A stretch of DNA of 64,000 nt from an uncultured Acidobacteriota bacterium (GTDB lineage Bacteria; Acidobacteriota; Blastocatellia; RBC074). The position numbers and the translations under genes were made by a program. The stretch covers positions 1,915-65,914 of the forward strand of contig CADECP010000038.1 of assembly GCA_902825875.1 (NCBI GenBank), in the 5' to 3' direction. The notes under the pieces were generated by a model, which did not search any database, was not told where the DNA came from, and worked only from the letters and a program-made list of their open reading frames with translations. Below are positions 16,701-33,928 of this stretch, one piece after another (the first letter of the stretch is position 1; each line of letters opens with the position of its first letter).

Positions 16701-17112
16701 AATGCTGATTAACGAACTCGCCGGTTCGGGCGGAGACGCCATGCCCTGGTATTTCAAAAAATCCAAGCTTGGTCCGCTGGTTGGCAAAAAGACCTGGGGC
16801 GGTTTGATCGCTGCTTTCGGCGCGCCGCCTTTGATGGATGGCGGCGGAAACACCGCGCCGGACGCGGCGATTTACGGCTTGGACGGCGAATGGGAAGTTG
16901 AAAACGCCGGAGTCGCGCCCGACATCGAAGTCGAATTCGATCCGGCGCTCTGGCGGCAAGGACGTGATCCGCAACTGGAACGCGCGGTCGAATACCTGCT
17001 GGAAGAACTGAAGAAGAATCCGCCGAAGCAATACAAACGCCCGGCGTTTCCAAACTATTTCAAAAACGCAGCGCCTGCGCCCGCTGGTCAGGGTGGACGC
17101 GGTAATCAATAG
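13705..17112 (+). CDS. Tricorn-protease homologue (peptidase S41B: TolB-like beta-propellers, PDZ and S41 catalytic domain), secreted, paralogue 1.
   Basis: The 1135-aa protein has a signal peptide and TolB-like propeller blades (NPYFSPDGTQVAFTGEYDGNTDVYVV). Its C-terminal S41 region carries GSGGD and KKTWGG motifs. Length and domain order match tricorn. Confidence 0.75.
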   Translation: MTKPILSLLLAVALASVCLAQGEATLFQKPTVNQTHIVFVYAGDLWSVPRTGGDAKRLTTGIGTETNPYFSPDGTQVAFTGEYDGNTDVYVVPATGGVPKRLTFHPGPDIAAGWTPDGKRVLFSSGRNSYAGFVRLFTVGVEGGNSSSGGLPEELPLPMGERGAYSADATRIAYEPLNQWQPEWKRYYGGQQDVIWIAKLSDSTIEKLPRKGGNDRYPMWVGDRIFFLSDRDERYALYSYDVKTKKTDLLVKDSVFDIKTASAWSGDAKSSAAIAFEQFGTIHLYDLKTNKAQKVSIRVAADQLAMRPRFERVGQRIFNTHISPTGARAVFEARGEIITVPAEKGDPRNLTNTPGVMERDPAWSPDGKWIAYFSEESGEYALHLRDQKGEGEVKKFALPPTFYASPTWSPDSKKFAFTDKKLQLWYLEIDKGQPVKVDANPIGFNEDVMDPVWSPDSRWLTYTKQLPNLLRAVFVYSLETGKANQVTDSLGDARFPAFDRSGKYLYFTASTNLGPSISFADLSGFGNQPTRSVYAIVLRNDIPSPLAPESDEEKIAEEKKPDAASGGQGDGAKPATPPAPPAGATPPAAAATPPAKKDEPTRIDLEGIDQRVIALPIPNRNYQGLMAGKANVIYIIEQLAGATAPGYTVQKYDLEKRKLDKALDGVAAFEISANGEKALYRQGFGSWVIGSVATLGAPMPPGAPGGPSMLKVADMEVRVDPQVEWRQMYNEVWRNERDFFYDKNLHGLNLEEMKKRYAPYVEAVAHRSDLTYLFTDMLNQLTIGHMFIFGGDQPSPNFVPGGLLGADYKIENGRYRFAKVFNGENWNPNLRAPLTAPGINVKEGEYLLAVGGRELRSIDSVYQFLESKAGKQVVIKVGANADGSNSREVTVVPVGSEQGLRYLAWIEGNRRKVDQLSGGKLAYLHMPDTANGGYDSFNRYFFAQTNKNGILLDERFNNGGLLADYVVQLLSRQQLSNIHYREGGQDVPVPAGAIYGPKAMLINELAGSGGDAMPWYFKKSKLGPLVGKKTWGGLIAAFGAPPLMDGGGNTAPDAAIYGLDGEWEVENAGVAPDIEVEFDPALWRQGRDPQLERAVEYLLEELKKNPPKQYKRPAFPNYFKNAAPAPAGQGGRGNQ

Positions 17113-17258: not shown

Positions 17259-20200
17259 ATGAGAAAAGCATTTTTGAGTTTGTCGCTCTTGCTCATCGCA
17301 GCCGCGATGCTGATTTCAGATAACCGCAGTTCGGCGCAGGAGCGTCCGCTGTTGGTTCGCAAACCGACGATGAATCGCACGCACATCGTTTTTCAGTATG
17401 CTGGCGATTTGTGGAGCGTGCCGCGCGCAGGTGGCGAAGCCACTCGGTTGACCAATGGAACCGGCGGCGAAGGGAACGCTGTCTTTTCGCCCGACGGCCA
17501 GACCGTAGCTTTCACTGGTGAATACGACGGAAACACTGACGTTTTCACAGTGCCTGCTTCGGGCGGAGTTCCGAAACGAGTGACCGCTTATCCCGGCGTT
17601 GACGCTTTGTCCAACTGGACTCCCGATGGCAAATCGCTGTTGTTCCTTTCCGAACGCAGCAGCGAATCGCGCCGCTTCATGAAGCTCTTCACCGTGCCAG
17701 CCACCGGCGGGTTGCCTGCCGAAGTTCCGCTGCCCACCGGACACGAAGGCTCATTCTCGCCGGACGGATCGAAGCTGGCGTATGAACCGCTGCCGCGCGC
17801 CTTCAACGCCTGGAAGCGGTATCGAGGCGGGCACGCTTCGTACATTTGGATTGCCGCGCTCAGCGATTCCAGCACAGAAAAAATCCCGCGCGAAGATTCC
17901 AACGACTTCAATCCGATGTGGATTGGAGATAAGGTTTATTTTCTGTCTGACCGCGACGGCGCAATCACGTTGTTTGCTTACGACACCAAAACCAAGCGCG
18001 TGTCGAAGCTCATCAACAACACCGGGCTGGACATTAAATCAGCCACGGCGGCGACCACAGGTGATGCGATTGTTTACGAGCAGTTCGGTTCGCTGAACAT
18101 CTTCGACTTGAAATCCAACCGCAGCACAAAGGTCAACGTGACCATCAACGCCGATCAACTGGCTGTGCGTCCGAAGTACGAACGAGTCGGCCAGCGCATC
18201 AACGGCGCAGCCATTTCGCCAACCGGCGCTCGCGCTGTGTTTGAAGCTCGCGGTGAAATCCTGAGCGTCCCGGCTGAAAAAGGCGATGCTCGTAATCTGA
18301 CCAGCACGACCAACGTCGCTGAACGTGATCCTTCGTGGTCGCCAGACGGAAAGTGGATTGCCTATTTCAGCGATGCTTCCGGCGAATACGAACTCCACCT
18401 GCGCGATCAAAAAGCCGCTGGCGAAGTCAAAAAGATCAAACTTGAGCCAAGCTTTTATTACAACCCGCAATGGTCGCCTGATAGCAAGAAAATCGCTCTC
18501 AGCGACAAACGCGGCAATATGTGGTTGGTGGATGTCGAAACCGCTCAGCCGAAAAAATACGACACAACGATTTTTGCTGGAGCCAACGGCGTCAGTTGGT
18601 CTTCAGACAGCCGCTGGCTGACTTACGGCAAACCTCTGAAATCGTATTACAGCGCGGTTTATGTTTATTCGCTGGAAGACGGCAAGACGGTTCAGATCAC
18701 CGACGGCATGAGCAACGCCGGTTCGCCTGTCTTCGACAAAAGCGGCAAATACATTTACTTCACGGCCAGCACAGACACCGGGCCGAAACTTTCCGGCTTC
18801 GATATGTCTTCGTATGCTCATCGCCCGACGAGCAGCGTTTATGTCGCCGTGTTGAGAAAAGATTTGCCTTCGCCGCTGGCTCCTGAAAGCGACGAAGAAA
18901 AGGTGCAGAACCCCGACCGTGAGGGAGGGGCTGACGCAGCCAAGCCTGCTGACAAGCCAGAAGAGAAAAAAGCTGATGCTGCGGCTGCGGCAAAACCTGC
19001 CGAGAAGAAAGAGGCTCCGAAGGTCGCAATTGATTTCGACAACATCGGCCAGCGTATTCTGGCTTTGCCGATTCCGAACAAAAACTACGTTGGTTTGGAT
19101 GCTGGTAAGCCCGGAACTTTGTGGATTGGCGAATTTCCAGAAGGCGCACAAGGAGCCACGCTCCACAAATTCGATTTGGAAAAGCGCAAGCTGGATAAAG
19201 TGATGGACAACATCCAGACGCTGACCTTTTCGGCCAACGGCGAAAAGATGCTGTACCGAATGGGGCCGGGCTGGTTCATTGCGGCAACGGCTATGGCGGG
19301 AACGCCTGCTTTCAAACCCGGCGAAGGCAGATTGAAAACCGAAGACATGGAAGTTTTCGTTGATCCCAAAGCCGAGTGGCAGCAGATGTACCGCGAAACC
19401 TGGCGCATCGAACGCGACTTCTTTTACGCGCCGAACTATCACGGGCTTGACCTGAAAGCGACCGAGAAGAAATACGAGCCTTACGTGCAAGCGTTGGTTC
19501 ATCGCTCGGATTTGAATTACCTGTTTCAGGAAATGCTGGGCGAATTGACTGTCGGCCATCTGTACGTCAACGGCGGAGACATTCCCGATCCGAAGCGCAT
19601 CGCTGGTGGATTGCTCGGAGCCGATTACAAGATTGAAAACGGGCGCTATCGCTTTGCCAAAGTTTTCAACGGTGAAAACTGGAATCCGCAACTTCGCGCT
19701 CCGTTGACGCAACCAGGAGTCAATGTCGTCGCGGGCGAATATCTGCTGGCTGTCAAAGGCCGCGATTTGACCGCCGCCGACGACATTTACGCTTTGTTTG
19801 AAAGCACGGCAGGCAAACAGGTGACGCTCAAAGTCGGGCCAAATCCTGACGGAACTGGTTCGCGCGATGTTGTCGTCGTTCCCGTCGCCAGCGAAGGCGC
19901 GCTTCGTAACCTGGCCTGGGTCGAAGACAACCGCCGCAAAGTCGAAAAGATGAGCGATGGCCGACTGGCTTACATTTATCTGCCGGACACTGCCGGGGGC
20001 GGTTACACCTTCTTCAACCGCTACTTCTTCTCGCAACTCGACAAACAAGGCGCGGTGGTGGATGAACGCTACAACAGCGGAGGCCACGCGGCGGATTACG
20101 TCGTTGATTACCTGAAGAAACCGCTCAACAGTTTTTGGGCTGGCCGCGACGGCATAGATTTTCGTCAGCCTGTCGCCACGATGCCCGGTCCGAAAGCTAT

Positions 20201-20621
20201 GTTGGCCAATGAATACTCCGGTTCGGGTGGAGATTATCTGCCCTACCTGTTCCGCCGTTACGGCATAGGCCCGATTATCGGCAAACGCACGTGGGGCGGT
20301 CTGGTTGGAATCGGAGGTTATCCGACGTTGATGGACGGCGGCAGCGTGACGGCTCCGCACTTCGCGTTTTACACGCCTGAAGGGAAATGGGACATCGAAA
20401 ATCGAGGCGTCGCGCCCGACATCGAAATTGACCTCGACCCCAAAGCCTGGCGCGAAGGCCGCGACGTTCAGCTTGAACGCGCCGTCAATTACCTGCTGGA
20501 AGAACTGAAGAAAAATCCGCCGAAGGAATACAAACGTCCGCCGTATCCCGATTACCACAAAGCCAATCCGATTGCTCCGGCTTCGGGCGGGCAATCGGCG
20601 AAAAACGGCAGCCAGCAGTAA
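17259..20621 (+). CDS. Tricorn-protease homologue, paralogue 2.
   Basis: The 1120-aa protein is colinear with paralogue 1 at roughly 55-60% identity by eye. It has the same propeller/PDZ/S41 order and a Lys/Ala/Glu-rich linker insert. Confidence 0.75.
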   Translation: MRKAFLSLSLLLIAAAMLISDNRSSAQERPLLVRKPTMNRTHIVFQYAGDLWSVPRAGGEATRLTNGTGGEGNAVFSPDGQTVAFTGEYDGNTDVFTVPASGGVPKRVTAYPGVDALSNWTPDGKSLLFLSERSSESRRFMKLFTVPATGGLPAEVPLPTGHEGSFSPDGSKLAYEPLPRAFNAWKRYRGGHASYIWIAALSDSSTEKIPREDSNDFNPMWIGDKVYFLSDRDGAITLFAYDTKTKRVSKLINNTGLDIKSATAATTGDAIVYEQFGSLNIFDLKSNRSTKVNVTINADQLAVRPKYERVGQRINGAAISPTGARAVFEARGEILSVPAEKGDARNLTSTTNVAERDPSWSPDGKWIAYFSDASGEYELHLRDQKAAGEVKKIKLEPSFYYNPQWSPDSKKIALSDKRGNMWLVDVETAQPKKYDTTIFAGANGVSWSSDSRWLTYGKPLKSYYSAVYVYSLEDGKTVQITDGMSNAGSPVFDKSGKYIYFTASTDTGPKLSGFDMSSYAHRPTSSVYVAVLRKDLPSPLAPESDEEKVQNPDREGGADAAKPADKPEEKKADAAAAAKPAEKKEAPKVAIDFDNIGQRILALPIPNKNYVGLDAGKPGTLWIGEFPEGAQGATLHKFDLEKRKLDKVMDNIQTLTFSANGEKMLYRMGPGWFIAATAMAGTPAFKPGEGRLKTEDMEVFVDPKAEWQQMYRETWRIERDFFYAPNYHGLDLKATEKKYEPYVQALVHRSDLNYLFQEMLGELTVGHLYVNGGDIPDPKRIAGGLLGADYKIENGRYRFAKVFNGENWNPQLRAPLTQPGVNVVAGEYLLAVKGRDLTAADDIYALFESTAGKQVTLKVGPNPDGTGSRDVVVVPVASEGALRNLAWVEDNRRKVEKMSDGRLAYIYLPDTAGGGYTFFNRYFFSQLDKQGAVVDERYNSGGHAADYVVDYLKKPLNSFWAGRDGIDFRQPVATMPGPKAMLANEYSGSGGDYLPYLFRRYGIGPIIGKRTWGGLVGIGGYPTLMDGGSVTAPHFAFYTPEGKWDIENRGVAPDIEIDLDPKAWREGRDVQLERAVNYLLEELKKNPPKEYKRPPYPDYHKANPIAPASGGQSAKNGSQQ

Positions 20622-20689: not shown

Positions 20690-21115
20690 ATGAAAACTTA
20701 CGATGTGCTTGTTGAGCGACATAATGGAGGGTATCGCGCTATCGTGCCGACTCTGCCTAACTTGATTGCCGAAGGGGCGACTCCGGATGAAGCTGTCATC
20801 AACGTTAAGCAGACAATTGAGGAATTTTTCAAGTCTGTTGAGGTGAGAACAGTTACCGTTGATCTGTCATCCGGGAAATTCGCGCTTGCTGAAAAGTGGC
20901 TTCAGGAGGCCAGAAGGTCCCACCAGAATGCTGAAGGAGTACCAGGTTTGGACAAGCGAAGCCCGCGCATTTGGCTTGAGACTGCGGGAATGTTCGCGGG
21001 CGATGAAGAAGCGATGTGGCAGCACATTGAAGAAATAGAGGCTGAGCGTCGTCGGCAACGTGAGGAAGTTGAACGCGAGTACGATCTGCTTGAAGCCAAA
21101 GGAAAGGGCGAATGA
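20690..21115 (+). CDS. HicB-like/UPF0150-family antitoxin-like protein, probable partner of the downstream PIN toxin.
   Basis: The N-terminal YRAIVPTLPNLIAEGATPDEAVINVKQTIEEF matches the HicB/UPF0150 fold signature. An AAAGGAG ribosome-binding site is present. Its stop overlaps the vapC start by 4 nt. Confidence 0.45.
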   Translation: MKTYDVLVERHNGGYRAIVPTLPNLIAEGATPDEAVINVKQTIEEFFKSVEVRTVTVDLSSGKFALAEKWLQEARRSHQNAEGVPGLDKRSPRIWLETAGMFAGDEEAMWQHIEEIEAERRRQREEVEREYDLLEAKGKGE

Positions 21116-21537
21116 AGTTATACGTGTTGGATACAAGCGTCTGTGGTTTCGTACAAAATCGTTATCCGGCGACGATGCAACACGTCCAAAATGCTTTGGG
21201 ACAGGGCGATGCAGTTGTAACCACGATTGTCGCTTTTGGCGAAGATTTAGGAGGTTGGTTGCCCGCCTGTCGTAGAGCTAAAACCGGACTTGAAAGAGAG
21301 AAAGCCTATCTTCGATTGCAGACTGGATTGGAGTTTTACCTGACAAAAGACTGCCTTCCTTTTGACCGAACAGCCTCGCATATTCTCGATAACTTGGTGG
21401 CTCAAAAAATCCGTGTTGGCACAAACGACCTGGCAATTGCCGCCATCACGCTTTCGGTTAATGGCATTCTGGTGACGCGAAACACTGTGGATTTTGAACG
21501 TGTCCCAAACCTCGTCATCGAAGATTGGACAGTGTGA
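21112..21537 (+). CDS. vapC: PIN-domain ribonuclease toxin (VapC family).
   Basis: The LYVLDTSV N-terminal Asp is present, together with the conserved acidic residues (FGEDLGG, TNDLAIAAI, TRNTVDFERV). The protein is 141 aa. Confidence 0.75.
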   Translation: MKLYVLDTSVCGFVQNRYPATMQHVQNALGQGDAVVTTIVAFGEDLGGWLPACRRAKTGLEREKAYLRLQTGLEFYLTKDCLPFDRTASHILDNLVAQKIRVGTNDLAIAAITLSVNGILVTRNTVDFERVPNLVIEDWTV

Positions 21538-22056: not shown

Positions 22057-25000
22057 ATGACAAAAATAACTTTGGTAACCACGTTTCTAGTCGCTCTTGC
22101 AGGCATTGGCCTAGCTCAGGAATCACCGCTGTTGTTGCAGCGTCCGACTTTGAGCAAGACGCACATCGCTTTTAACTTCGCCGGTGATTTGTGGATCGTC
22201 GAACGCGGTGGTGGCGAAGCGAAACAATTGACCACCGGAGTCGGCGTCGAAATCGAGCCGATCTTTTCGCCGGATGGTTCGCAAATCGCCTTCACCGGAC
22301 AGTACGACGGCAACACGGATGTGTTTGTCGTCGCGGCGACCGGCGGAGTTCCGAAGCGGCTGACGTTTCACCCCGGCGGCGATCAAGCTGTTGGCTGGAC
22401 TCCTGACGGCAAGCGCGTGTTGTTCAGTTCAGCGCGCAGCAGCTTTTCGCCTACGCCGCGGTTGTTCACGATTGGAACCGATGGAGCCGGATTGCCGGAA
22501 GAAATTCCTTTGCCGATGGCGGAGCGTGGTTCGTATTCGCCCGACGGAGCTTCTCTGGCTTATGAGCCGCTGGTTCAATGGCAGCCCGAATGGAAGCATT
22601 ACAAAGGCGGCCAGCAGGATGTGATCTGGATTGCCAGGCTTAGCGATTCGACGATTGAAAAGCTGCCGCGCGCCAATTCCAACGACAAAAGCCCGATGTG
22701 GCCCTCTTTTGGAAACGCCGACAAGGTTTACTTCCTGTCTGATCGGAACGGCGCAGTGACGCTGTTTTCGTTCGACACCAAAAACAAAAAGATTGCTCAG
22801 GTCGTCAACAACAACGGACTCGACATCAAATCGGCTTCGGCCAGTTCGGATGCGATTGTTTACGAACAGTTCGGCGCGATTTATGTGCTCGACCTGAAAA
22901 CCAACCAGTCGCAGAAAGTGAACATTCGCGTCAACGCTGATCTGGCTTCGGTGCGTCCGCGCTTTGAGCGAGTCGGCCAACGCATCAGCGGCGCGGCGAT
23001 TTCTCCGGCAGGCGCGCGAGCGGTCTTTGAAGCGCGTGGCGAAATCCTGAGCGTTCCGGCGGCCAAGGGCGATGCGCGCAATTTGACCGGGACTCCGGGC
23101 GTGATGGAACGTGATCCGGCGTGGTCTCCAGACGGAAAATGGATCGCTTATTTCAGCGACGAATCCGGCGAATACGCTTTGCACCTGCGGAATCAAACCG
23201 GCGTCGGCGAAGTCAAAAAGATCAGCCTGGGCAATCCCTCGTCGTTTTTTTATTCGCCTGTCTGGTCGCCCGACAGCAAGAAAATCGCTTTCACCGACAA
23301 ACGGTTGATCCTTTGGTACGTGGACATTGAAAAGGGAACGCCGGTCAAAGTAGACACCAACACTTATGAAAATCCCTGGCGCGTGATGGATCCAAACTGG
23401 TCGCCGGATAACAAGTGGATCACTTACACCAAGCAGTTGAAGAACCGTATGTGCGCGGTCTTCGTGCATTCGCTGGAAACCGGCAAGTCCACGCAAATCA
23501 CCGACGGATTGAGCGACGCGCGTTTTGCGAACTTCGACAAAAACGGCAAATACCTTTACTTCACTGCCAGCACTGACGCCGGGCCGACAACTGGCTGGCT
23601 GGATATGTCCAGCTTCCCGCACCAGACGACGCGAAGCGTTTATGTCGTGGTGCTGAAGAAAGGCGAAGCTTCGCCGCTGGCTCCTGAAAGCGACGAAGAA
23701 AAGATTGCCGAAGAAAAGAAAGACGAAGCGCCTAAAGCTCCTCCGCAAAAGAAAGAAGTCGTCGTCACGATTGATTTTGAAGACATCGGCCAGCGCATTC
23801 TGGCTTTGCCGATTCCTGCCAAAAACTACATCGGGGCGGGTGTGGCAAAGTCTGGCCTGTTGTTCCTGATGGAAGGCGCGGGTGGTGGTTTGTTGGGCGG
23901 CGGCCCGGCAACGCTTCACAAATTCGACCTGGAAAAACGCAAGTTCGACAAGGTGATGGACGGCATTACGGCTTTCGACATTTCTGCCAACGGCGAAAAA
24001 GCTCTTTACCGACAAGGGCCAAGCTGGGTGATTGGCAACGTCGCCAGCTTGGGAGCGCCAATGCCTCCGGGAGCGCCGGGCGGGCCGAACATGTTGAAAG
24101 TCGGCGAAATGGAAGTTTCGATTGATCCCAAAGCCGAGTGGCGGCAAATGTACGAAGAAGCCTGGCGCATTCAACGCGACTTCCTGTACGACCCAAACCT
24201 GCACGGATTGGATTACGCCGCGACCAAGAAAAAGTACGAGCCGTATTTGAACGCCGTCGGCCACCGCGCCGATTTGAATTACCTGTTCGATGAAATGCTG
24301 AACAACATCGGCGTCGGCCATCACTTTGTTCGAGGCGGAGAAATTCCGCGCCCGAATTTTGTGCCGGGCGGGTTGCTCGGAGCCGATTACAAAATCGAAA
24401 ACGGGCGCTATCGCTTCGCGCACGTTTACAGCGGAGAAAACTGGAATCCGGGATTGCGCTCTCCGCTGACGCAACCCGGCGTTGAAGTCAAAGCTGGTGA
24501 ATATCTGCTGGCCGTCAAAGGCCGTAATCTGACGGCGACCGACAACATCTACCAATTCTTTGAAGCGACGGCAGGCAAACAGGTGACGATCAAAGTTGGC
24601 CCGAATCCCGACGGTTCTGGTTCGCGCGAAGTCGTCGTGGTTCCCATCGGCAGCGAAGGCGGGCTTCGCAACCGCGAATGGATGGAAGGCAATCGCCGCA
24701 AAGTGGATCAACTGAGCGGCGGCAAACTGGCATACATTTATCTGCCAGACACTGGCGGAGGCGGTTACACCAACTTCAATCGCTACTACTTTTCGCAAGT
24801 GGACAAAGAAGGCGCGGTGCTGGATGAACGCTACAACGGCGGCGGCACGGCGGCGAATTACATCATTGATATGATGCGACGTCCGTTGATGAACAAATGG
24901 GTGACGCGCGAAGGCGAAGATTTTGCGACGCCTGCGACTTCGATCTTTGGGCCGAAGGTCATGGTTATCAACGAATTCGCCGGTTCGGGCGGAGACATGA

Positions 25001-25410
25001 TGCCGTGGCTGTTCCGCAAAGCTGGCGTCGGCAAAACCGTCGGCAAACGCACTTGGGGCGGTTTGGTAGGCATTTACGATTACCCGTCGCTGATGGATGG
25101 CGGCAGCGTGACGGCTCCGCGCGTAGCGTTTTACAACCTGCAAGGCGAATGGGACGTGGAAAATTACGGAACTCCGGCGGATGTCGAAATCGAACTCGAT
25201 CCGGCGGAATGGCGCAAAGGCCGCGATTCGCAACTGGAAAAAGCCGTCGAAGTCGCAATGGCCGAACTGAAAGCCAAGCCTTTGCCGACGCACAAACGAC
25301 CGGCTGCGTTCCCGAATTACAACAGTCCTGCTTCGCCTGTTTCGGGCAGCAAGACAAAACCGAGCAGTACGACCGGCAAACCTGCCGTGAAAACCGGCGG
25401 ACAGCGGTAA
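22057..25410 (+). CDS. Tricorn-protease homologue, paralogue 3.
   Basis: The 1117-aa protein has the same architecture as the two upstream paralogues. Confidence 0.75.
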   Translation: MTKITLVTTFLVALAGIGLAQESPLLLQRPTLSKTHIAFNFAGDLWIVERGGGEAKQLTTGVGVEIEPIFSPDGSQIAFTGQYDGNTDVFVVAATGGVPKRLTFHPGGDQAVGWTPDGKRVLFSSARSSFSPTPRLFTIGTDGAGLPEEIPLPMAERGSYSPDGASLAYEPLVQWQPEWKHYKGGQQDVIWIARLSDSTIEKLPRANSNDKSPMWPSFGNADKVYFLSDRNGAVTLFSFDTKNKKIAQVVNNNGLDIKSASASSDAIVYEQFGAIYVLDLKTNQSQKVNIRVNADLASVRPRFERVGQRISGAAISPAGARAVFEARGEILSVPAAKGDARNLTGTPGVMERDPAWSPDGKWIAYFSDESGEYALHLRNQTGVGEVKKISLGNPSSFFYSPVWSPDSKKIAFTDKRLILWYVDIEKGTPVKVDTNTYENPWRVMDPNWSPDNKWITYTKQLKNRMCAVFVHSLETGKSTQITDGLSDARFANFDKNGKYLYFTASTDAGPTTGWLDMSSFPHQTTRSVYVVVLKKGEASPLAPESDEEKIAEEKKDEAPKAPPQKKEVVVTIDFEDIGQRILALPIPAKNYIGAGVAKSGLLFLMEGAGGGLLGGGPATLHKFDLEKRKFDKVMDGITAFDISANGEKALYRQGPSWVIGNVASLGAPMPPGAPGGPNMLKVGEMEVSIDPKAEWRQMYEEAWRIQRDFLYDPNLHGLDYAATKKKYEPYLNAVGHRADLNYLFDEMLNNIGVGHHFVRGGEIPRPNFVPGGLLGADYKIENGRYRFAHVYSGENWNPGLRSPLTQPGVEVKAGEYLLAVKGRNLTATDNIYQFFEATAGKQVTIKVGPNPDGSGSREVVVVPIGSEGGLRNREWMEGNRRKVDQLSGGKLAYIYLPDTGGGGYTNFNRYYFSQVDKEGAVLDERYNGGGTAANYIIDMMRRPLMNKWVTREGEDFATPATSIFGPKVMVINEFAGSGGDMMPWLFRKAGVGKTVGKRTWGGLVGIYDYPSLMDGGSVTAPRVAFYNLQGEWDVENYGTPADVEIELDPAEWRKGRDSQLEKAVEVAMAELKAKPLPTHKRPAAFPNYNSPASPVSGSKTKPSSTTGKPAVKTGGQR

Positions 25411-25432: not shown

Positions 25433-25473
25433 AAAAGCGCGAGCGTTGAGTGATTTCAATGCTCGCGCTTTTT
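25433..25473 (+). terminator. Rho-independent terminator of the tricorn paralogue 3 gene.
   Basis: AAAAGCGCGAGCGTTGAGTGATTTCAATGCTCGCGCTTTTTATTT is a GC-rich hairpin followed by a T-tract. Confidence 0.6.
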
Positions 25474-25492
25474 ATTTGTCGGTCGCCAAATC

Positions 25493-25520
25493 TTGAAAGT
25501 TTTCGTTCACCCGATACAAT
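25493..25520 (+). promoter_or_regulatory. Sigma-70-like promoter for the DUF692 gene.
   Basis: TTGAAA, a 16-nt spacer and TACAAT lie about 8 nt upstream of the ATG at 25528. Confidence 0.4.
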
Positions 25521-25527
25521 CCGGTTT

Positions 25528-26409
25528 ATGCCAACATTTGCAGAAAAAGTAAGCCGGTTGCCGCGCCTGGGTGTCGGCCTTTCGGGTGAGTTCAACATTG
25601 CCGCCAAAGGCATGAATGTGAATTGGGTGAAGGAAGATTACCCGGACTTGATTCACTTTTATGAGTACGGCGGCGATTTGGAACGTGGCCTGGACGATGG
25701 TGTTCGCCAATGGGCGGCGAACGGGTTGCCGACGACGTATCACTTTCTGGACATCAACCTGGAAGAGAAGATTGATCTCGATGCGCGCTGGATTGCCGAA
25801 ACGAAACGGCTGGCCAAGGAGATCAATGCGGCGTGGTTGTGCGGAGACGCCGGGCGCTGGCATTTCGCCCAACGCGAACGCGGTCACGGCGTATTGATGC
25901 CTCCGATCCTGTGCCGCGAATCAGCCATCGAAACCGCCGAAAGCATAGCCGAAATCGAAGCAGCCACCGGAATGACGGTGTTGCCGGAAAATCCTCCGGC
26001 GGTGATTTACCTGGGCGATTTGCACATTCTGGATTACTTCGCGCTGGTCGCCGACAAAGCCGATTGCGGATTGTTGCTGGATTGCGCGCATCTGGCGATT
26101 TTTCAGCAAACGCGCAACTTGTCGCCGCTCACCGGCCTGGACAACTTCCCGCTGGATCGCGTCGTTGAAATTCACGTCGCGGGTGGAGCTTTCGCCGAAG
26201 TCGAAGGTTACGTTTACATCGAAGACAATCACTCGCCCGAACCTCTGCCAGCCACTTGGGAAATCGTCGAATACGTTCTGCCGCGCGCGAAAAACCTGAA
26301 AGCCATTGTCTTTGAATGCGAACACAACCAGCCGGAAGAATGTCTGCCGGTGTTCGAGCGATTGAATTCGCTGTTTCCCGCCAATCTGGAATTGAGGGCC
26401 GCCGTCTGA
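25528..26409 (+). CDS. DUF692-family protein (MNIO: multinuclear non-heme iron oxidative enzyme; MbnB/TglH/BufB-like).
   Basis: The N-terminal LGVGLSGEF and the central ...LDRVVEIHVAGG... strand match the conserved DUF692 TIM-barrel signatures. The protein is about 294 aa from the ATG at 25528. Confidence 0.75.
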   Translation: MPTFAEKVSRLPRLGVGLSGEFNIAAKGMNVNWVKEDYPDLIHFYEYGGDLERGLDDGVRQWAANGLPTTYHFLDINLEEKIDLDARWIAETKRLAKEINAAWLCGDAGRWHFAQRERGHGVLMPPILCRESAIETAESIAEIEAATGMTVLPENPPAVIYLGDLHILDYFALVADKADCGLLLDCAHLAIFQQTRNLSPLTGLDNFPLDRVVEIHVAGGAFAEVEGYVYIEDNHSPEPLPATWEIVEYVLPRAKNLKAIVFECEHNQPEECLPVFERLNSLFPANLELRAAV

Positions 26410-27275
26410 TGAGCCATCACACGTTGCAAAAACTGATTCCCCGAATGCTTTTTGACGAAGCGTTTACAGCGTCGGTGTATTCCGAACCGGAAAAGACGTT
26501 GGCTGGATTTGATCTGACGGCAGCCGAGCGCGCGCAATTGCTCAGCGTAGATCGTCGCGCGTGGCGATACGATGCTTTGCGAAAGCGGCGCATGCTGCGA
26601 ACGCTGGCCGAAGAATTCAAAAATTCGACGACGATCATTTTGGCGGAAACTCGTTCGCTGGCTTCGCTGGAAACGTATTTTTCCAGTCGTTTTTTTCATT
26701 CGGCGATTCAGGATCGCGGTTCGCTGGCGCGCGGCTTTGCAGAATTTTTGATGGATGGTTGCCAAACTGGCGCGTGGACTTCGCCGCAGATTGCCGATGT
26801 CGTTCGGTTGGAACAGGTGATGGCTGGATGTCGCCGTTCGCTGGCGCGAGAAGGTTACAGCAAAGCTCCTGAATTGCCGTCAAAGATTGACCCTTCCAAG
26901 CGCGTCAAACTCGCCGCCGGGCACGATGTCGCCAGCTTTCAGGGAAAGGTGATCGAAACGATTCAGCATGTCGAAAAATACCTGTTTGAACTCAGTCTGA
27001 TGCCGGCGATGGCGTTGTGCGATGACGCGCCGCGACTCAGCGGATTGCCGCCGGTGGATTCCCAGCGGAAGCTGTATTTTCTGTTTCACCCCAGCGCCAC
27101 CGGAATTTCGATGACCAGCTTGGACAAAGCCGAGTATCTGGTGTTGTACGACGCCAAACACCCTGTCGAAATCAACTCTCTGTTTGTGCGCCACCCTGAC
27201 AAACCTAACTCTACGCCAACCGATACCATAGTGCTGGAATGGCTGGAAGACGGCGCGTTGCGGTTGTCGGATTGA
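26409..27275 (+). CDS. Probable DUF2063-like partner protein of the MNIO enzyme (MbnC/TglI/BufC-like).
   Basis: Its ATG overlaps the DUF692 stop (TGATG), so it is translationally coupled exactly as in known MNIO-partner pairs. The N-terminal LQKLIPRMLFD resembles the DUF2063 start. The call rests mainly on gene context. Confidence 0.45.
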   Translation: MSHHTLQKLIPRMLFDEAFTASVYSEPEKTLAGFDLTAAERAQLLSVDRRAWRYDALRKRRMLRTLAEEFKNSTTIILAETRSLASLETYFSSRFFHSAIQDRGSLARGFAEFLMDGCQTGAWTSPQIADVVRLEQVMAGCRRSLAREGYSKAPELPSKIDPSKRVKLAAGHDVASFQGKVIETIQHVEKYLFELSLMPAMALCDDAPRLSGLPPVDSQRKLYFLFHPSATGISMTSLDKAEYLVLYDAKHPVEINSLFVRHPDKPNSTPTDTIVLEWLEDGALRLSD

Positions 27276-27388
27276 GCTTTCAGCTATGGCACAGGCTCAG
27301 TCGGGTTGTAGTTGTAAATTCTCGTAAAACTCTTTTCCAAACAGCAAAGCGCGCCTTACATCGGCTCGATTTTGCTTATACTCAGCCG

Positions 27389-27422
27389 CTACATTTCAGA
27401 TTCAACTACATTTCAGATTCAA
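27389..27422 (+). repeat. Two tandem copies of the 17-nt unit CTACATTTCAGATTCAA.
   Basis: The perfect direct repeat lies 40-70 nt upstream of the esterase ATG. A third, degenerate copy (CTACATTTCAGAATCGT) is at 28729-28745. Confidence 0.6.
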
Positions 27423-27461
27423 AACCGACGCGACCGATCCGATTTTCTCAATGGAGATTTT

Positions 27462-28652
27462 ATGAAACGACTTTTCCTTTTTGTTTCTCTGTGCCTGACG
27501 CTGACGTTTGTCGCTTATGGGCAAAACAATCAAACGATTCAGCGGTTGACCATCAAATCCGCGGTCATGGGCGAAGAGCGCGTGATTTTGGTGCATACGC
27601 CCGCCGGATACGCCAACGGCAAACAACGGTATCCGGTGTTGTACCTGACCGACGGCAACGCGCATCTGGCTCACACCGTTGCGACAATTGATTTCCTGGC
27701 GCGAGCCGGACGAATGCCCGAACTAATCATCGTCGCCATCAACAACACAGACCGCACACGCGATCTGACGCCGACCAACGCCTCTATGAAGCGCGACGAC
27801 GGTTCTCCAGCTCTGTTGCCGACTTCGGGCGGAGCCGACAAATTCCTGAAGTTCATCGAAACAGAATTGATCCCCAGCATTGAAAGCGACTATCGCGTCC
27901 AGCCGTATCGCATTTTCGCCGGGCATTCTTTCGGCGGATTGTTCGCGCTGCACGCAATGCTGACACGACCAGAATTGTTCAACGCCTTCATCGCCGTCAG
28001 CCCGACCATGCATTGGGACAATCACTTGCTGTCGCGCAAAGCCGAAGCCTTTTTCAAAGATCGAAAAGAACTCAACCGCACGCTGTATCTGACTTTGGCC
28101 AACGAAGGCGGCGAAGCCAAAATCGGCTTTGAACGCTTCAAGGCGATTGTGACCAAAAACACTCCGAAAGGATTTTCCTTTGGCTCTGCGTTGATGGAAG
28201 ACGAAGACCACGGCTCAGTAGTGATGCCCAGCCATTACGCCGGATTTCGCAAAGTCTTTGAAGGCTGGCAACTGACCGGAACCGTCGCCAATGTTGGGCA
28301 AGTTGAAGCCCACTACAAAAAACTGTCGGCGCGGTTTGGCTACACCGTGCTGCCGCCCGAAGTGATGATGAACCTGTTCGGTTATCAATTGGTTGGCTTG
28401 GGCAAAAACGACGAAGCCCTCGCCGTGTTCAAACTCAACGTCAAAAACTACGCCGAATCGGCGAACGTTTACGACAGCCTGGCCGAGTTTTACGAAAAGA
28501 CCGGCAAGCTGGACATGGCCAAACCGAATTATGCAAAAGCGGTGGAGCTTGGCGCTCAAACCAACGATCCGAACCTTCAGGTTTACAAAACGAACCTCGA
28601 CCGTGTCAGCGAAGCTCTGAAGAAATCCGCCGAAGCCAAAGGCAACAAGTAA
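27462..28652 (+). CDS. Secreted esterase (putative-esterase/enterochelin-esterase-like alpha/beta hydrolase) with a C-terminal TPR.
   Basis: A signal peptide is followed by YPVLYLTDGNAHL and GHSFGG (nucleophile elbow). TPR-like helices occupy the last ~100 aa. A GGAG ribosome-binding site is present. Confidence 0.65.
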   Translation: MKRLFLFVSLCLTLTFVAYGQNNQTIQRLTIKSAVMGEERVILVHTPAGYANGKQRYPVLYLTDGNAHLAHTVATIDFLARAGRMPELIIVAINNTDRTRDLTPTNASMKRDDGSPALLPTSGGADKFLKFIETELIPSIESDYRVQPYRIFAGHSFGGLFALHAMLTRPELFNAFIAVSPTMHWDNHLLSRKAEAFFKDRKELNRTLYLTLANEGGEAKIGFERFKAIVTKNTPKGFSFGSALMEDEDHGSVVMPSHYAGFRKVFEGWQLTGTVANVGQVEAHYKKLSARFGYTVLPPEVMMNLFGYQLVGLGKNDEALAVFKLNVKNYAESANVYDSLAEFYEKTGKLDMAKPNYAKAVELGAQTNDPNLQVYKTNLDRVSEALKKSAEAKGNK

Positions 28653-29599: not shown

Positions 29600-31105
29600 T
29601 TACTTGCCGCTGGTTTCTCCCAACTCTTTTAGCACAGCATCCAGATTGGCTTTGACAAGTTTCGTGTTCGGATGCTCATCGCCAAGAAACTGGCGAAGGA
29701 TGCCGAGTGAGCGTTCCAAGAGATTTTTGGCTTGTTGTAATTCGCCCAAATCTCGGAGTACGCAAGCAAGACCATTGAGACGATTGGCGATCTTCGGGTG
29801 GTTTTGACCGAAGGCTGCTTCGTCAATTTCCAGCGAACGTTCGAGAAGGTTTATGGCTTTTTTAGTCTCGCCCAAATCGTTTAACACGGAAGCGAGATTG
29901 TTAAGTCCAGTAGCAACATTAGGGTGATTGGGGCCGAAATTAACTTCATCAATTTTGAGCGATCTCTCAAGTAGAATTTTTGCCTGTTCCAATTCGCCCA
30001 AATTTTTTAGTACAGAAGCCAAATTGTTTAGTTTGGTGGCAACCAGAGGGTGGTCGTTTCCTAAAGATTGTTCGTCAATTTTGAGGGCACGTTCAGACAT
30101 GGCTTTGGCTTGTTGTAATTCGCCCAAATCTTTTAGCACTGAAGCGAGGTTGTCGAGATGAGCGGCAACATTAGGATGGTTAGCCCCGAATGTTTCAGTG
30201 GCTATATTGACAGCACGTTCTAGTAAGATTTTGGATTCTTGTAACTCCCCCATGTCTTTGAGTGCGTAAGCCAAATTATTAAGCCGAGTCGCAACGTCGG
30301 GATGGTCAGTGCCAAAAGCTTTTTCAGATATTTTTAGTGCTTGCGTTAAATAGTTACGTGACTGCTGGTACTCCGCTCTTTGCAAATATAGTCTTCCAAG
30401 CCGGTCGAGCAGGTCGGATTGTTCAACGGCTTCGGCTTGGGAAAGATTATTTGGATCGGAATTGGATTGAGCCTTGGCCAGCAATTCCTTGAGTACGTCT
30501 TCCCAACGGTCGCGTTCGTCTTTGCTCATCCAGCGTTGGTCTTCAGTGTCCCGAATTGTCTCCAGTGTTTCGCGCGAAGCTGCCGCTCGCATTCGTTGGG
30601 GAACTTCCAGGTCATAAACTCCGCTGTACCAGTCGTATAAATCCGGCGCGTTTCTGGCCATCAGGGTCAGCGCGTATTCCGGCAGCCAGAACACCATCGG
30701 TCGCCGCATCCTTTGAAAAAAGCCGCGCCGCCAATTCAATTCCTGAGTCGTAGCCCAAACTCGATCTTCGTCGCGCGAAGGCAGCAGGTTTTCCAAACCG
30801 GTGATGAAGACAACGGCGTCTTCTGAAACGCCTTCCAGTTTGGTTTCGACAAAGCCGTCCACCGACGGGCGAGTTTTCTGATCCATTTCAGCCAGCGGGC
30901 TGGTGTCCACAACAACCAGCGGGCGGGTTAAGCGCGAGCGAATGGCTTCGGTCAGTTTAGCTCTGTAAGTGGGAACGTTGCAGTGGGCGAAGTAAAGCGA
31001 AAAGCCTTTGACTCGCTTCAACGTCTCAATGAACCGCGCGAGGTCGGGCTGTTCGGCGAACAGTTGAGCGTGAGCGTCTCTCTCGGTTTCGTTCGGTTCT
31101 GCCAT
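29600..31105 (-). CDS. TPR-repeat protein (kinesin-light-chain-like TPR_10/12 repeats) with a roughly 170-aa non-TPR N-terminal domain.
   Basis: It carries seven to eight 42-aa repeats of the form A..LNNLA.VL.DLGEL..A. Its start codon lies 2 nt after the stop of the upstream ATPase gene. Confidence 0.7.
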   Translation of the reverse strand: MAEPNETERDAHAQLFAEQPDLARFIETLKRVKGFSLYFAHCNVPTYRAKLTEAIRSRLTRPLVVVDTSPLAEMDQKTRPSVDGFVETKLEGVSEDAVVFITGLENLLPSRDEDRVWATTQELNWRRGFFQRMRRPMVFWLPEYALTLMARNAPDLYDWYSGVYDLEVPQRMRAAASRETLETIRDTEDQRWMSKDERDRWEDVLKELLAKAQSNSDPNNLSQAEAVEQSDLLDRLGRLYLQRAEYQQSRNYLTQALKISEKAFGTDHPDVATRLNNLAYALKDMGELQESKILLERAVNIATETFGANHPNVAAHLDNLASVLKDLGELQQAKAMSERALKIDEQSLGNDHPLVATKLNNLASVLKNLGELEQAKILLERSLKIDEVNFGPNHPNVATGLNNLASVLNDLGETKKAINLLERSLEIDEAAFGQNHPKIANRLNGLACVLRDLGELQQAKNLLERSLGILRQFLGDEHPNTKLVKANLDAVLKELGETSGK

Positions 31106-31107
31106 AG

Positions 31108-32415
31108 TTATTTTGAAGTTTCAGGGTTAGCCAGAAATTCTCGCATGCGCGGCAGGCTGCGAACCATCGGGTGAACATCTGCCCATCTCAGACCATTTTC
31201 GTATTCGTGAACCAGGCGCAAATTCAGCAGTCGGCTTTCGCTTTGTTCGCCGGACAATCGTTGCGTGTTGGAAATTCTGGCCAACGTGGGCAAATCTTCA
31301 TCGCGCAGGATGCGGTCGAATTCTTTGGCCATTCGGCTGGTGGCATCTTCCACATCGTCGTCATTGATTTTGTCGGGGAAGTTGTCCGCAGAAAGTCGAA
31401 CCAGTCGCAATAAATCTCTGACCGAACCGCCACACATTGCAATCAATTGATTGACCGATTCGGGATTTTCAAACACGTCTTCAATGGCAACACGCGAACT
31501 GACGACTTGATGCAGTGCATTGATGCCTTCTTCGTTGTTTTGATTGACCATTGGCAAAATAACCAACTCATCGGAGTAGGCGTGCCCCAGATTGACGTTG
31601 AACGCCAAAAAGATCGGCAGCGTGTAAATGATGTGGCAATCGGGTGATTTCAATTGGTCAGCGTGACGAATGAAAAGTACCGATTGATTAGACGTGCCAT
31701 CTTCTTCTCGGTAGTGCATTTTTTCCAGCCCATCCACAATCACGACCAGATCGTGAAAATTGCCGTCGCGCACCAGATTCCGGGCATTACCGATGAAGAC
31801 GTTCAACCGTTCAATAAAATCCCCAAGTTCGTTATCCAATCGTTGGCGGATTTCTGAGCGGCGATTGCTGGAAGCCTTAAGGTGGCTGGTAACCATCGCC
31901 AAGGCTCGTGCTAGTAATGGCAATTTGGAATCAATGCCGAATTCAGTTTTGAGTGAAGCCTCGCCTTCGATTTTTTGCTCAATGATCAAAATTTTTTCGG
32001 CAAACCATTGATCGAGGCTTTCGCGCAATTTGGCGTCAATCTCAATTTTTGCGTCACTTAGCTCTTTTTCAATTGCCTTGGTGATTGCTACCAGCACATC
32101 TTGGTATCTGATGTCCGCCAGATCGAGCACATCTTCCACGTCGAAGTAGACGACGAAATACCCTTCTTTCCTGAGTTGATCCTGTAACTGGAAAAGTTCG
32201 GTGGATTTACCGCAACCGCGATGCCCGCTGACCAATTGATGATGGTAACGACCAGGTTCGGCGTGTTTGATCTTGTTCGCAATCTTTTTGGCAATGTTGC
32301 TGCGGATGCCGCGAGCTTTGGTTAGGTCAACAAAACGTTTGTCGCCGGGTTGCAAAGGAATATCGGGGTGACAGGCGGAATAAGCTTCGTCCACTGTGTG
32401 AACCGGGTAGATCAT
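31108..32415 (-). CDS. P-loop NTPase with ABC-like Walker A/Walker B spacing.
   Basis: Walker A is GHRGCGKST and Walker B is LVVIVDGLEK, about 190 aa downstream. This spacing is typical of ABC/AAA_15-type ATPases rather than STAND NTPases. The likely start is the ATG at 32415 (MIYPVHT). Confidence 0.65.
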   Translation of the reverse strand: MIYPVHTVDEAYSACHPDIPLQPGDKRFVDLTKARGIRSNIAKKIANKIKHAEPGRYHHQLVSGHRGCGKSTELFQLQDQLRKEGYFVVYFDVEDVLDLADIRYQDVLVAITKAIEKELSDAKIEIDAKLRESLDQWFAEKILIIEQKIEGEASLKTEFGIDSKLPLLARALAMVTSHLKASSNRRSEIRQRLDNELGDFIERLNVFIGNARNLVRDGNFHDLVVIVDGLEKMHYREEDGTSNQSVLFIRHADQLKSPDCHIIYTLPIFLAFNVNLGHAYSDELVILPMVNQNNEEGINALHQVVSSRVAIEDVFENPESVNQLIAMCGGSVRDLLRLVRLSADNFPDKINDDDVEDATSRMAKEFDRILRDEDLPTLARISNTQRLSGEQSESRLLNLRLVHEYENGLRWADVHPMVRSLPRMREFLANPETSK

Positions 32416-32512
32416 AATTGCCTCTGAGTTTGGGATTCGATGTGAAACCGGCGGGATTATACAACGCGGCAAAGGGCTTGTCGTTAATGGCGTTTGTGGC
32501 ACAATCGCGCCG

Positions 32513-33928
32513 ATGATTGACGCGGCTGACAAACAATTCACTCTTCAATTCGATGCCGGGACTTTGCTGCTGGACGGCGCGGATCGTTCGTTCGAGGCTC
32601 CGCCGCCGTTTGAATGGGACGATAGAGTTAAGCGTTGGCGCGCTCAGGCCATTGCCTATCGCCAAATCGTTACAGAATTAACCCGCCGAAAAATCGCTCA
32701 CGAAGACAAAGCTCGCCAATACATCGAATTCCAATTCAAAGCCGAACTGACCGCCGAACCTCGCCCGTATCAGGAAGAATCCATCGCCGCCTGGAAAAAA
32801 GCCGGGCGACGCGGAACTGTCATTTTGCCAACCGGAGCGGGCAAGACTTTTGTCGCTCAGATGGCGATTGAAATGGTCAGTCGTTCGACGCTGGTCATTG
32901 TGCCTACGATTGATTTGATGAATCAGTGGTATGACTTGCTGCTGTCTTCGTTCAACGCCGAAATTGGTTTGATCGGCGGAGGGTATTTTGAACGCGGCGC
33001 GATTGTCGTCACGACTTACGCTTCGGCTTTTCGGTTTATGGAGCGAATGGGCGGAGAATTCGGTTTCATCATCTTCGACGAATGCCACCACTTGCCGAGC
33101 GATGTTTATCGTTACGCTGCGGAAATGGCGATTGCTCCGTTTCGGCTGGGGTTGACCGCAACTCCCGAACGCGCCGACGGCGGCGAAGAATTATTGGAAC
33201 GGTTGATCGGGCCGATTGTTTATCGCAAAGAAGCTCAGCATCTGGCCGGAGAGTTTCTGGCCGATTACACGACCGAAAAGATTTCCGTCGTGCTGTCGCC
33301 CGCAGAGCGCGAGCTTTACGAAAGCGAACGAAATATCTTTCGCCAGTTCACGCGCGAAAAGGGAATTTACTTCGGCGATCCGCGCGGCTGGCAGCAGTTC
33401 ATTATGATGAGCGCGCGCAGCCAGGAAGGCCGCCGCGCAATGCAGGCTTACCGCGAATCCAAGCGCATCGCTCTGGGCAACGATGCCAAAGTTCACGTGC
33501 TGGAAAAGTTGATGCAGCGTCATCGCCGCGAACGACTGATAGTTTTCACGGCGGAAAACGAAATGGTTTATCGCATCTCCGAACAGTTTTTGGTTCCGGC
33601 CATCACGCACGAAACTCCGATCAAGGAGCGTCGAATGTGGCTGGAAGCTTTCAACAAAGGCGACGTGCTGACTTTGGTGACTTCAAAAGTCTTGAACGAA
33701 GGCGTCAACATTCCAGAAGCTTCGGTGGCTGTGGTGCTTTCTGGTTCCGGGTCTTCGCGCGAACACATTCAACGGCTGGGACGAATTTTGCGAAAACAGC
33801 CGGACAAACAAGCAGTGCTTTACGAAGTCATCACGGCTCAGACCGCCGAAGAAAACATCAGCCAACGCCGCACAGACGCCAGACAGTTTCAACGCGATCA
33901 AGCTCTGGGCGACGATTGGATGCAATGA
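32513..33928 (+). CDS. XPB/ERCC3-like superfamily-2 DNA helicase.
   Basis: Helicase motif I (ILPTGAGKTFVA), motif II (DECHH) and motif III (GLTATPER) are present, together with RED-like and C-terminal helicase motifs. The protein is 471 aa. Confidence 0.75.
   Translation: MIDAADKQFTLQFDAGTLLLDGADRSFEAPPPFEWDDRVKRWRAQAIAYRQIVTELTRRKIAHEDKARQYIEFQFKAELTAEPRPYQEESIAAWKKAGRRGTVILPTGAGKTFVAQMAIEMVSRSTLVIVPTIDLMNQWYDLLLSSFNAEIGLIGGGYFERGAIVVTTYASAFRFMERMGGEFGFIIFDECHHLPSDVYRYAAEMAIAPFRLGLTATPERADGGEELLERLIGPIVYRKEAQHLAGEFLADYTTEKISVVLSPAERELYESERNIFRQFTREKGIYFGDPRGWQQFIMMSARSQEGRRAMQAYRESKRIALGNDAKVHVLEKLMQRHRRERLIVFTAENEMVYRISEQFLVPAITHETPIKERRMWLEAFNKGDVLTLVTSKVLNEGVNIPEASVAVVLSGSGSSREHIQRLGRILRKQPDKQAVLYEVITAQTAEENISQRRTDARQFQRDQALGDDWMQ

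Follow-up and report, generated by a model that had tools for sequence, protein, structure and literature searches.

What does a multinuclear non-heme iron oxidase (MNIO, DUF692) act upon when no precursor peptide gene accompanies it? This question is raised by a two-gene unit in a 64,000-nucleotide stretch from an uncultured Acidobacteriota bacterium of the Blastocatellia (assembly GCA_902825875.1, contig CADECP010000038.1, positions 1,915 to 65,914; this whole stretch is called the window, and its numbering is used below), in which an MNIO gene is followed directly by the gene of a partner protein (Table 1). A preliminary description of this DNA had proposed a DUF692 gene, an overlapping DUF2063 partner gene and a promoter belonging to the pair, with no precursor gene nearby, and all of its coordinates and motifs proved correct. 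We find that the first gene encodes a bona fide MNIO and that the absence of an adjacent precursor is a property of the whole family rather than of this locus. Both components belong to known kinds, one being an MNIO and the other a partner resembling TglI, the second subunit of TglHI, which is the Pseudomonas syringae peptidyl-(S)-2-mercaptoglycine synthase (PDB 8HI7/8HCI).

The MNIO and its metal ligands

The signatures LGxGLS and EIHVAGG, on which the assignment to DUF692 had been based, lie at residues 14-19 (LGVGLS) and 214-220 of the first gene product, and residues 63-270 match the Pfam family PF05114 (MbnB_TglH_ChrH) with 71.9 bits at a cut-off of 25 (E 6.7e-20). An AlphaFold2 (AF2) model built with 22 family members as input reached a pLDDT of 89.8 and a pTM of 0.90; the fold is the xylose-isomerase-like TIM barrel. 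In a Foldseek search of the PDB with this model, the best nine matches were all MNIOs, including TglH, the Haemophilus somnus DUF692 protein structure 3BWW and three MbnB orthologues, with E-values from 1e-14 to 1e-8 and TM-scores of 0.64-0.77. TglH ranked at the top (E 1.2e-14), and endonuclease IV and sugar isomerases ranked below the nine MNIOs.

The Fe1 and Fe2 ligands of TglH are His71, His107, Glu151, Asp184, His216 and Glu258, and those of Fe3 are Asp184, Asn187, Asp229 and His231 (PMC10880893). We mapped these positions by HMMER alignments of the window MNIO to TglH, 3BWW and MbnB. The direct TglH alignment places Glu151, Asp184, His216, Asp229, His231 and Glu258 at E154, D185, H216, D233, H235 and E263, respectively, and Asn187 at H188. 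The counterparts of His71 and His107, namely H72 and H112, come from the 3BWW and MbnB alignments rather than from TglH directly, and the second of these is less certain. The check for MNIO iron ligands that had been proposed for this protein therefore finds all nine positions occupied by His, Asp or Glu, and these residues are invariant in the 16-22 family members compared, including members at 55-57% identity.

The replacement of Asn187 by an invariant His, a residue also able to ligate metal, falls within the family motif LLLDCAHLAIFQ. Two other invariant motifs, WLCGDAGRWHF and FECEHN, are specific to the family of the window MNIO. Together with His188, these family-specific motifs may be marks of a different metal stoichiometry or chemistry. 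The protein also stays under the NCBIfam equivalog cut-offs of BufB (63 for a cut-off of 310), ApyH (56 for 400), HvfB (47 for 360) and ChrH (16 for 600), and as judged from such scores it falls outside all characterized subfamilies. Within Blastocatellia the MNIOs share 64-92% identity, and the three most distant members aligned stand at 55-57%.

The partner protein

The second gene had been taken for a DUF2063 partner. Its role as partner stands, but the family assignment does not, as no Pfam family, DUF2063 (PF09836) included, matched the protein at E ≤ 0.1, and DUF2063 was likewise unmatched in 10 of 10 distant partner relatives tested with Pfam. A failure to match DUF2063 had been named in the preliminary description as grounds for no longer regarding the pair as unusual; literally this is what we found, but the fold is that of a bona fide partner. 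The AF2 model of the partner (pLDDT 73.8, with 3/4 of the remaining models below 60) comprises a helical N-terminal domain (residues ~1-148) and an alpha/beta, RRE-type (PqqD-like) peptide-binding C-terminal domain (residues ~165-288), and Foldseek matched it to TglI with an E-value of 2e-5 and a probability of 1.00. The modeled fold thus identifies the partner as a structural homologue of TglI (8HI7) and NGO1945 (3DEE), and not as a DUF2063 protein by hidden Markov model.

Partners that come after the MNIO gene, lack the DUF2063 signature and are structurally akin to NGO1945 and TglI have been described as 'PME-type 2' (Antoine et al. 2025, PMC12452194). The window partner has the features of this TglI-like class, as it lies directly after the MNIO, has no DUF2063 signature, is related to NGO1945 and TglI, is of a size (~260-290 residues) that gives room for both domains, and ends in an RRE-type domain. 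It differs in context, since candidate precursors accompany most of the clusters in which the published groups were defined (adjamnio-1, -2, -I, TIGR04222). The same survey found that PME-type 2 partners correlate with precursors without a Sec signal peptide (PMC12452194), and a secreted DUF2282/BufA-like precursor, which the preliminary description had expected to find, is therefore not the type of substrate to expect for this pair.

A weak likeness to another family was seen in the N-terminal domain. Residues 5-51 scored 35.7 with the NHLP-clan model NF038399 (Os1348 family), under its cut-off of 40, and 5 of 10 distant partner relatives scored 19-27 with PF14407 (Frankia_peptide, cut-off 48). 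The NHLP likeness is that of a subdomain within a 288-residue protein and not a sign of membership. The Os1348 cluster was considered as a link to MNIOs and rejected, because the genes around it, for an acetyltransferase, a HEXXH peptidase and a SagB-type dehydrogenase, include no MNIO; the resemblance between the partner and Os1348 is at the level of fold only.

Distribution of the pair and absence of a linked gene

Homologues of the partner numbered 289 in the word-indexed set, and 431 clusters at the 50% identity level had E < 1e-3. Scanning a single genome for each GTDB species gave 47 loci, essentially all of them in Blastocatellia metagenome-assembled genomes (MAGs), of which about 40 hold both genes. 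Four further Blastocatellia loci from contig look-ups bring the total to about 44 Blastocatellia species with both genes, and the DNA inspected extended ±4-10 kb around each pair. In every locus that has both genes, wherever the contig reaches far enough, the MNIO gene directly precedes that of the partner, and this arrangement is also present in seven more distant lineages with partner identities of 26-42%. About 50 loci, spread over no fewer than three phyla of soil and marine bacteria (Blastocatellia, Planctomycetota, Myxococcales and marine lineages), thus have the stand-alone pair.

No open reading frame (ORF) of at least 20 amino acids (aa) is free in either intergenic gap of the window, in line with the earlier statement that no precursor is adjacent, and no precursor-like ORF occurs elsewhere in its 64 kb. 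Among 47 loci with both genes, the 2.5-kb flanks of the pair have no ORF of at least 18 aa in common, close relatives apart. The 105 immediate neighbors of the pair fall into 60 sequence clusters, among which are a CoA-transferase, a peptidyl-prolyl isomerase, a STAS protein, an ABC1 kinase, an HTH protein, a glycosyltransferase, a BNR protein and a peroxiredoxin. We also considered a conserved third gene within ±6 kb and rejected it, since, when 6054 ORFs from 53 sequences (52 loci and the window region) were clustered, only the pair and its shadow frames were present in more than 16 of the sequences. The two genes that flank the pair in the window, whose synteny the preliminary description had marked for checking, are linked to it in a minority of these 47 loci only, the tricorn protease upstream in 10 and the esterase downstream in 7.

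The distant lineages place the pair in other surroundings. Its neighbors are a sigma factor, an anti-sigma factor and a DUF4097 protein in an ECF-sigma context (loci L053/L054), a NUDIX protein and an S9 peptidase in Planctomycetota MAG59127.1, CoA-binding and GNAT genes in a TARA marine lineage with an upstream gap of 12 nucleotides (nt), YceD, L32, RpiB and NrdR in L063, and an S9 peptidase in Myxococcales NUN15158.1, with an APH-type kinase further upstream; nothing precursor-like adjoins it in two further lineages. Gaps beside the pair in the distant loci are too short or hold implausible ORFs only, the two larger upstream gaps containing implausible high-GC ORFs. The adjacent precursor gene, usually placed directly upstream, by which an MNIO-type cluster for RiPPs (peptides made by the ribosome and modified after translation) is recognized is therefore found neither in the window, nor in the 47 loci, nor in the distant lineages. 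Small NHLP-like ORFs resembling the partner N-terminus were also absent from a 624-kb six-frame translation, a sample far too small to draw a conclusion from.

Both genes are nonetheless maintained. The dN/dS ratios (MNIO 0.08-0.16, partner 0.14-0.18) indicate a working system under purifying selection, and a decaying cluster remnant was rejected on these values (0.08-0.18 overall).

Nine of the MAGs (L007, L012, L014, L015, L020, L024, L026, L037 and L048) have 'uncultured Heliomicrobium sp.' or 'Heliobacteriaceae bacterium' as the title of their public record. In the pair and the tricorn genes, however, they show 60-85% identity to Acidobacteriota/Blastocatellia MAGs, and judging from this similarity the titles look like a taxonomy-label error.

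Expression of the pair

The preliminary description had given the pair a promoter of its own, located between an upstream terminator and the ATG (Table 1). The terminator sequence is conserved in the related loci L006 and L008 and divides the tricorn gene from the MNIO operon. Taken alone, the promoter match in the window is not significant (2 found, 1.4 expected by chance). Across 40 distinct orthologous upstream regions, 17 have TACAAT followed by CC exactly 7 nt ahead of the MNIO ATG, with TTGAAA or a near variant 16-18 nt ahead of the TACAAT. These regions come after quite different upstream genes, and it is this fixed position behind different genes that gives the promoter its phylogenetic support. 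A Shine-Dalgarno-like sequence was present in only 2 of the 40 regions. The fixed 7-nt distance from the -10 element to the ATG together with the lack of a ribosome-binding site indicates a leaderless mRNA, with a predicted 5' end at the A of the start codon or one base earlier.

As had been described, the MNIO stop codon (TGA, 26407-26409) shares one base with the partner start codon (ATG, 26409-26411), forming TGATG, and the overlap is 1 nt or 4 nt in most loci. The partner is thus predicted to be translated by coupling to the MNIO through this overlap. An Rfam scan of the flanks found no structured RNA or riboswitch, the sole match being a chance microRNA hit on the terminator hairpin. With its conserved promoter, the pair offers Blastocatellia a clean case of predicted leaderless expression.

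A proposed substrate in trans

With no gene linked to the pair in about 50 genomic contexts, three options are left for the substrate: it is encoded in trans, it is the partner itself, or it is not a peptide. On balance we favor, as somewhat probable, a TglHI-like holoenzyme whose peptide or protein substrate is encoded in trans; a substrate in trans was among the explanations offered in the preliminary description, and with no conserved adjacent gene in these loci it is still the best reading. Stand-alone maturase pairs of the RiPP type have a precedent in YcaO-TfuA, which thioamidates methyl-coenzyme M reductase (McrA), a protein encoded elsewhere. Like the window pair, YcaO-TfuA consists of a RiPP-type enzyme and a partner whose two genes form an isolated unit with lineage-wide conservation; unlike it, YcaO-TfuA has a known protein substrate, and its enzyme families and chemistry are unrelated to those of MNIOs. 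A substrate in trans is also favored by the conservation of the RRE domain, by the association of PME-type 2 partners with signal-less precursors, and by the suspicion of protein substrates voiced in the literature for MNIOs whose precursors cannot be found, some of which have been suggested to modify bona fide proteins (PMC12452194).

We take the pair to be a cytoplasmic heterodimer like TglHI because TglHI is the nearest solved relative of both subunits. In TglHI the MNIO provides the iron site and the RRE of the partner recruits the substrate peptide (PMC10880893). On this plan the two genes would form an autonomous, leaderless and translationally coupled operon whose product would be a cytoplasmic heterodimeric holoenzyme. 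The TIM-barrel MNIO would carry a di- or tri-iron site for O2-dependent oxidation, and the partner would dock on it through the N-terminal helical domain while its C-terminal RRE domain would recruit a peptide segment. The substrate would have no Sec signal and would be encoded elsewhere in the genome, either as one or more scattered small precursors or as a segment of a full-length cellular protein. From the evidence above we infer complex formation, the peptide nature of the substrate and its encoding in trans. A further proposal, which we regard as possible but rather doubtful, is that the pair is a lineage-wide housekeeping maturase and not a natural-product system, carrying out an MNIO-type oxidation on a cellular protein, on an RRE-recognized segment of such a protein, or on the invariant Cys loop of the partner.

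Several points weigh against the model of a TglHI-like holoenzyme with a substrate in trans. No candidate substrate was identified in the ~0.6 Mb of DNA around the pairs, and the model of the partner is of moderate confidence. The His at the Asn187 position and the scores far under the NCBIfam cut-offs mean that the chemistry is not transferable from any characterized MNIO. Finally, a trans model leaves unexplained any functional link to the recurrent neighbor of the pair, a secreted propeller peptidase.

Other explanations

One alternative is an ordinary RiPP cluster with a short adjacent precursor that was overlooked, as methanobactin-type precursors are very short and often unannotated (PMC12452194). 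The preliminary description had flagged a 13-codon Cys-containing ORF, MAQAQSGCSCKFS, which has a CxC motif, while noting that it was probably too short. This ORF is not a conserved coding feature. Counterparts are kept as an ORF in L007 (MAQARPDCSCKFS) and L008 (MAQAQPVCSCKFS) only; L006, the closest relative, has an unrelated downstream region with neither the ORF nor the motif overlapping it, and L016 and L033 retain the DNA string TGTAAATTCTCGTAAAACTCTTTTCCAAAC without an in-frame ATG upstream. The TGTAAATTCTCGTAAAACTCTTTTCCAAAC motif is present in all examined loci in which the esterase gene directly follows (the window, L007, L008, L016 and L033), whether the mini-ORF is there or not, and since it tracks the esterase gene it is probably part of the regulatory region of that gene. 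The mini-ORF was accordingly rejected as a precursor. The 2.5-kb flanks also hold no conserved ORF of at least 18 aa, the upstream gap of the window is taken up by the terminator and promoter, and several loci have no space for one (the gap is 12 nt in L058, and neighbors overlap or diverge elsewhere), so that we consider an overlooked adjacent precursor highly improbable. A self-contained system, in which the partner would itself be the substrate and the MNIO would modify its Cys204, would account for the lack of any linked substrate gene. This residue lies in the LMPAMALCDDAP loop just ahead of the RRE domain, within a motif, LMPAMALC-DAP (L-M-P-A-M-A-L-C-x-D-A-P), that 23 of 23 Blastocatellia partners share without change and that is recognizable in relatives at 35-42% identity (L053 LMPAVALCDDAP, L058 LVPAIALCNDKP, L055 LLPALSVCADAP). 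Residues 199-206 are the lowest-confidence stretch of the partner model (pLDDT < 50), as would be expected of a mobile segment, and Cys is the target of most characterized MNIOs (PMC12452194); the product might be a protein-borne thiooxazole, a thioamide-like group or another metal-binding group. However, of 125 family representatives only 31% have Cys204, which is missing in L063, where the pair still stands alone, a stoichiometric enzyme-substrate pair would be unprecedented among MNIOs, and a conserved loop beside the RRE could equally contact the MNIO or a substrate. We therefore judge self-modification to be unlikely.

The pair might instead be tied to secreted beta-propeller serine peptidases, either by modifying them before export or by taking part in oligopeptide catabolism on their products. 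The PD40-propeller S9 peptidase is the only neighbor cluster that crosses phyla, being the next gene downstream on the same strand in Blastocatellia (L038:6976-9051 and L044:6949-9027), Planctomycetota (L055:7011-9068; L055-57) and Myxococcales (L065:5898-7847); four lineages were thus observed, compared with ~0.35 adjacencies expected by chance at a rough background rate, and in the window clade the tricorn protease directly upstream is an S41 propeller peptidase. That background rate is uncertain, though, as these phyla are rich in such peptidases (three tricorn paralogues occur in the window alone), and most loci have no adjacent peptidase at all. All of the peptidases have a Sec signal peptide and their own ribosome-binding site whereas the MNIO and its partner are cytoplasmic, and the correlation of PME-type 2 partners with signal-less substrates (PMC12452194) also speaks against a connection, which we regard as improbable and keep as a lead. 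A small-molecule substrate, with the RRE reduced to a vestige and the partner having only a structural or activating role, seems to us about as improbable. It would fit the location of the pair beside housekeeping genes (L32/YceD, RpiB, NrdR, S-adenosylmethionine synthetase, CoA-transferase, pseudouridine synthase), the very high conservation of the MNIO, which is more like that of primary metabolism than of a RiPP cluster, and the xylose-isomerase-like TIM-barrel superfamily, which also includes enzymes acting on sugars and DNA. On the other hand, every characterized MNIO has a peptide as its substrate, the RRE-type domain is conserved under purifying selection, and the pair has no metabolic gene as a constant neighbor. 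Among these explanations a peptide or protein encoded in trans is the one that we retain.

Comparison with characterized MNIO systems

The closest known system is TglHI. The window pair has the same gene order, MNIO then partner, and in both systems the partner consists of a helical N-terminal domain, a linker and an RRE C-terminal domain (PMC10880893) and is missed by the Pfam DUF2063 signature. In contrast to TglHI, with which it shares only 12-18% sequence identity, the window pair has no adjoining TglA scaffold peptide gene or other pearlin-pathway gene, replaces the Fe3 ligand Asn187 with His, and is a vertically conserved stand-alone unit rather than a part of a biosynthetic cluster. BufBC, HvfBC and MbnBC belong to the same enzyme superfamily and have the same two-gene core of enzyme and partner, and BufB gave the best NCBIfam match of the window MNIO. 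The window scores remain far under the BufB and HvfB equivalog cut-offs, however, and the window partner is not a DUF2063 protein; there is also no BufA/DUF2282, HvfA or MbnA gene, and no DoxX or sigma/anti-sigma set in the window.

We found no description of a stand-alone group from Acidobacteriota, Planctomycetota and Myxococcota in the MNIO literature of 2025-2026. These taxon names have zero mentions in the main text of PMC12452194, whose supplementary tables, outside that search, may list the group, and the field already acknowledges MNIOs with unidentifiable precursors (PMC12452194). What the present family adds is a large group that is always a bare two-gene operon and is apparently vertically retained in the three phyla. 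All characterized MNIOs were found through a neighboring precursor gene, and the usual cluster logic fails for a family that never has one. The pair is thereby a defined entry point to a question raised in the field and as yet unanswered, whether MNIOs modify proteins or trans-encoded peptides. Should the pair indeed be a housekeeping maturase, MNIO chemistry in Acidobacteriota, Planctomycetota and Myxococcota would reach beyond RiPPs to the post-translational modification of proteins. A system of only two genes is simple to express. The annotation of a Chloracidobacterium sp. MAG (P0228) includes a homologue, and this genus has cultured representatives, which may allow work in cultured relatives.

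Features of the window

Table 1. The MNIO-partner operon, its signals and other features of the 64-kb window
Feature	Position	Strand	Remarks
Tricorn paralogue	13705-17112		~1120 aa, signal peptide
Tricorn paralogue	17259-20621		~1120 aa, signal peptide
PIN-domain protein gene	21112-21537		between the last two tricorn genes
Tricorn protease gene, upstream of the pair	22057-25410		1117 aa; signal peptide; PD40, Tricorn_C1, PDZ_Tricorn, Peptidase_S41
Intrinsic terminator of the upstream tricorn gene	25433-25472	+	18-pair stem, 4-nt loop, T-rich tail
Sigma-70-type promoter, TTGAAA-16-TACAAT	25493-25520	+	10/12 consensus matches; -10 ends 7 nt before the ATG
MNIO (DUF692) gene	25528-26409	+	293 aa; N-terminus MPTFAEKVSRLPRLGVGLSGEF
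Codon of MNIO His188	26089-26091		aligned with TglH Asn187
Partner gene (TglI/NGO1945-like, 'PME-type 2')	26409-27275	+	288 aa; N-terminus MSHHTLQKLIPRMLFDE
13-codon ORF	27285-27326	+	contains CxC
Non-coding DNA motif TGTAAATTCTCGTAAAACTCTTTTCCAAAC	27313-27342	+	30 nt; upstream region of the esterase gene
Promoter-like CTTACA-16-TATACT	27355-27382		after the TGTAAATTCTCGTAAAACTCTTTTCCAAAC motif
17-nt tandem duplication CTACATTTCAGATTCAA	27389-27422		two copies, perfect
Esterase gene, downstream of the pair	27462-28652		secreted, PF00756, TPR tail
TPR protein and NTPase genes, adjoining	29600-32541	-	501 aa (TPR_12/TPR_10); 477 aa (AAA_16/nSTAND-type)
Giant repeat protein gene	44048-54538		3496 aa; at least 13 SdrD_B-like repeats, CarboxypepD_reg-type domains

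Domain matches confirmed the identities that had been given to the two genes flanking the pair. The promoter-like sequence ahead of the esterase gene is followed by a tandem duplication that is specific to the window. The upstream tricorn gene is the last of three paralogues in tandem, and the insert between the last two of them holds a 152-aa ORF with no Pfam match and a 154-aa ORF on either side of the PIN-domain gene, which probably belongs to a toxin-antitoxin pair. An anti-phage defense system was considered for the window and rejected, as there was no PADLOC match. Further downstream, the arrangement of the adjoining TPR and NTPase genes resembles a STAND signaling or defense-like module, and the giant repeat protein is probably a surface adhesin.

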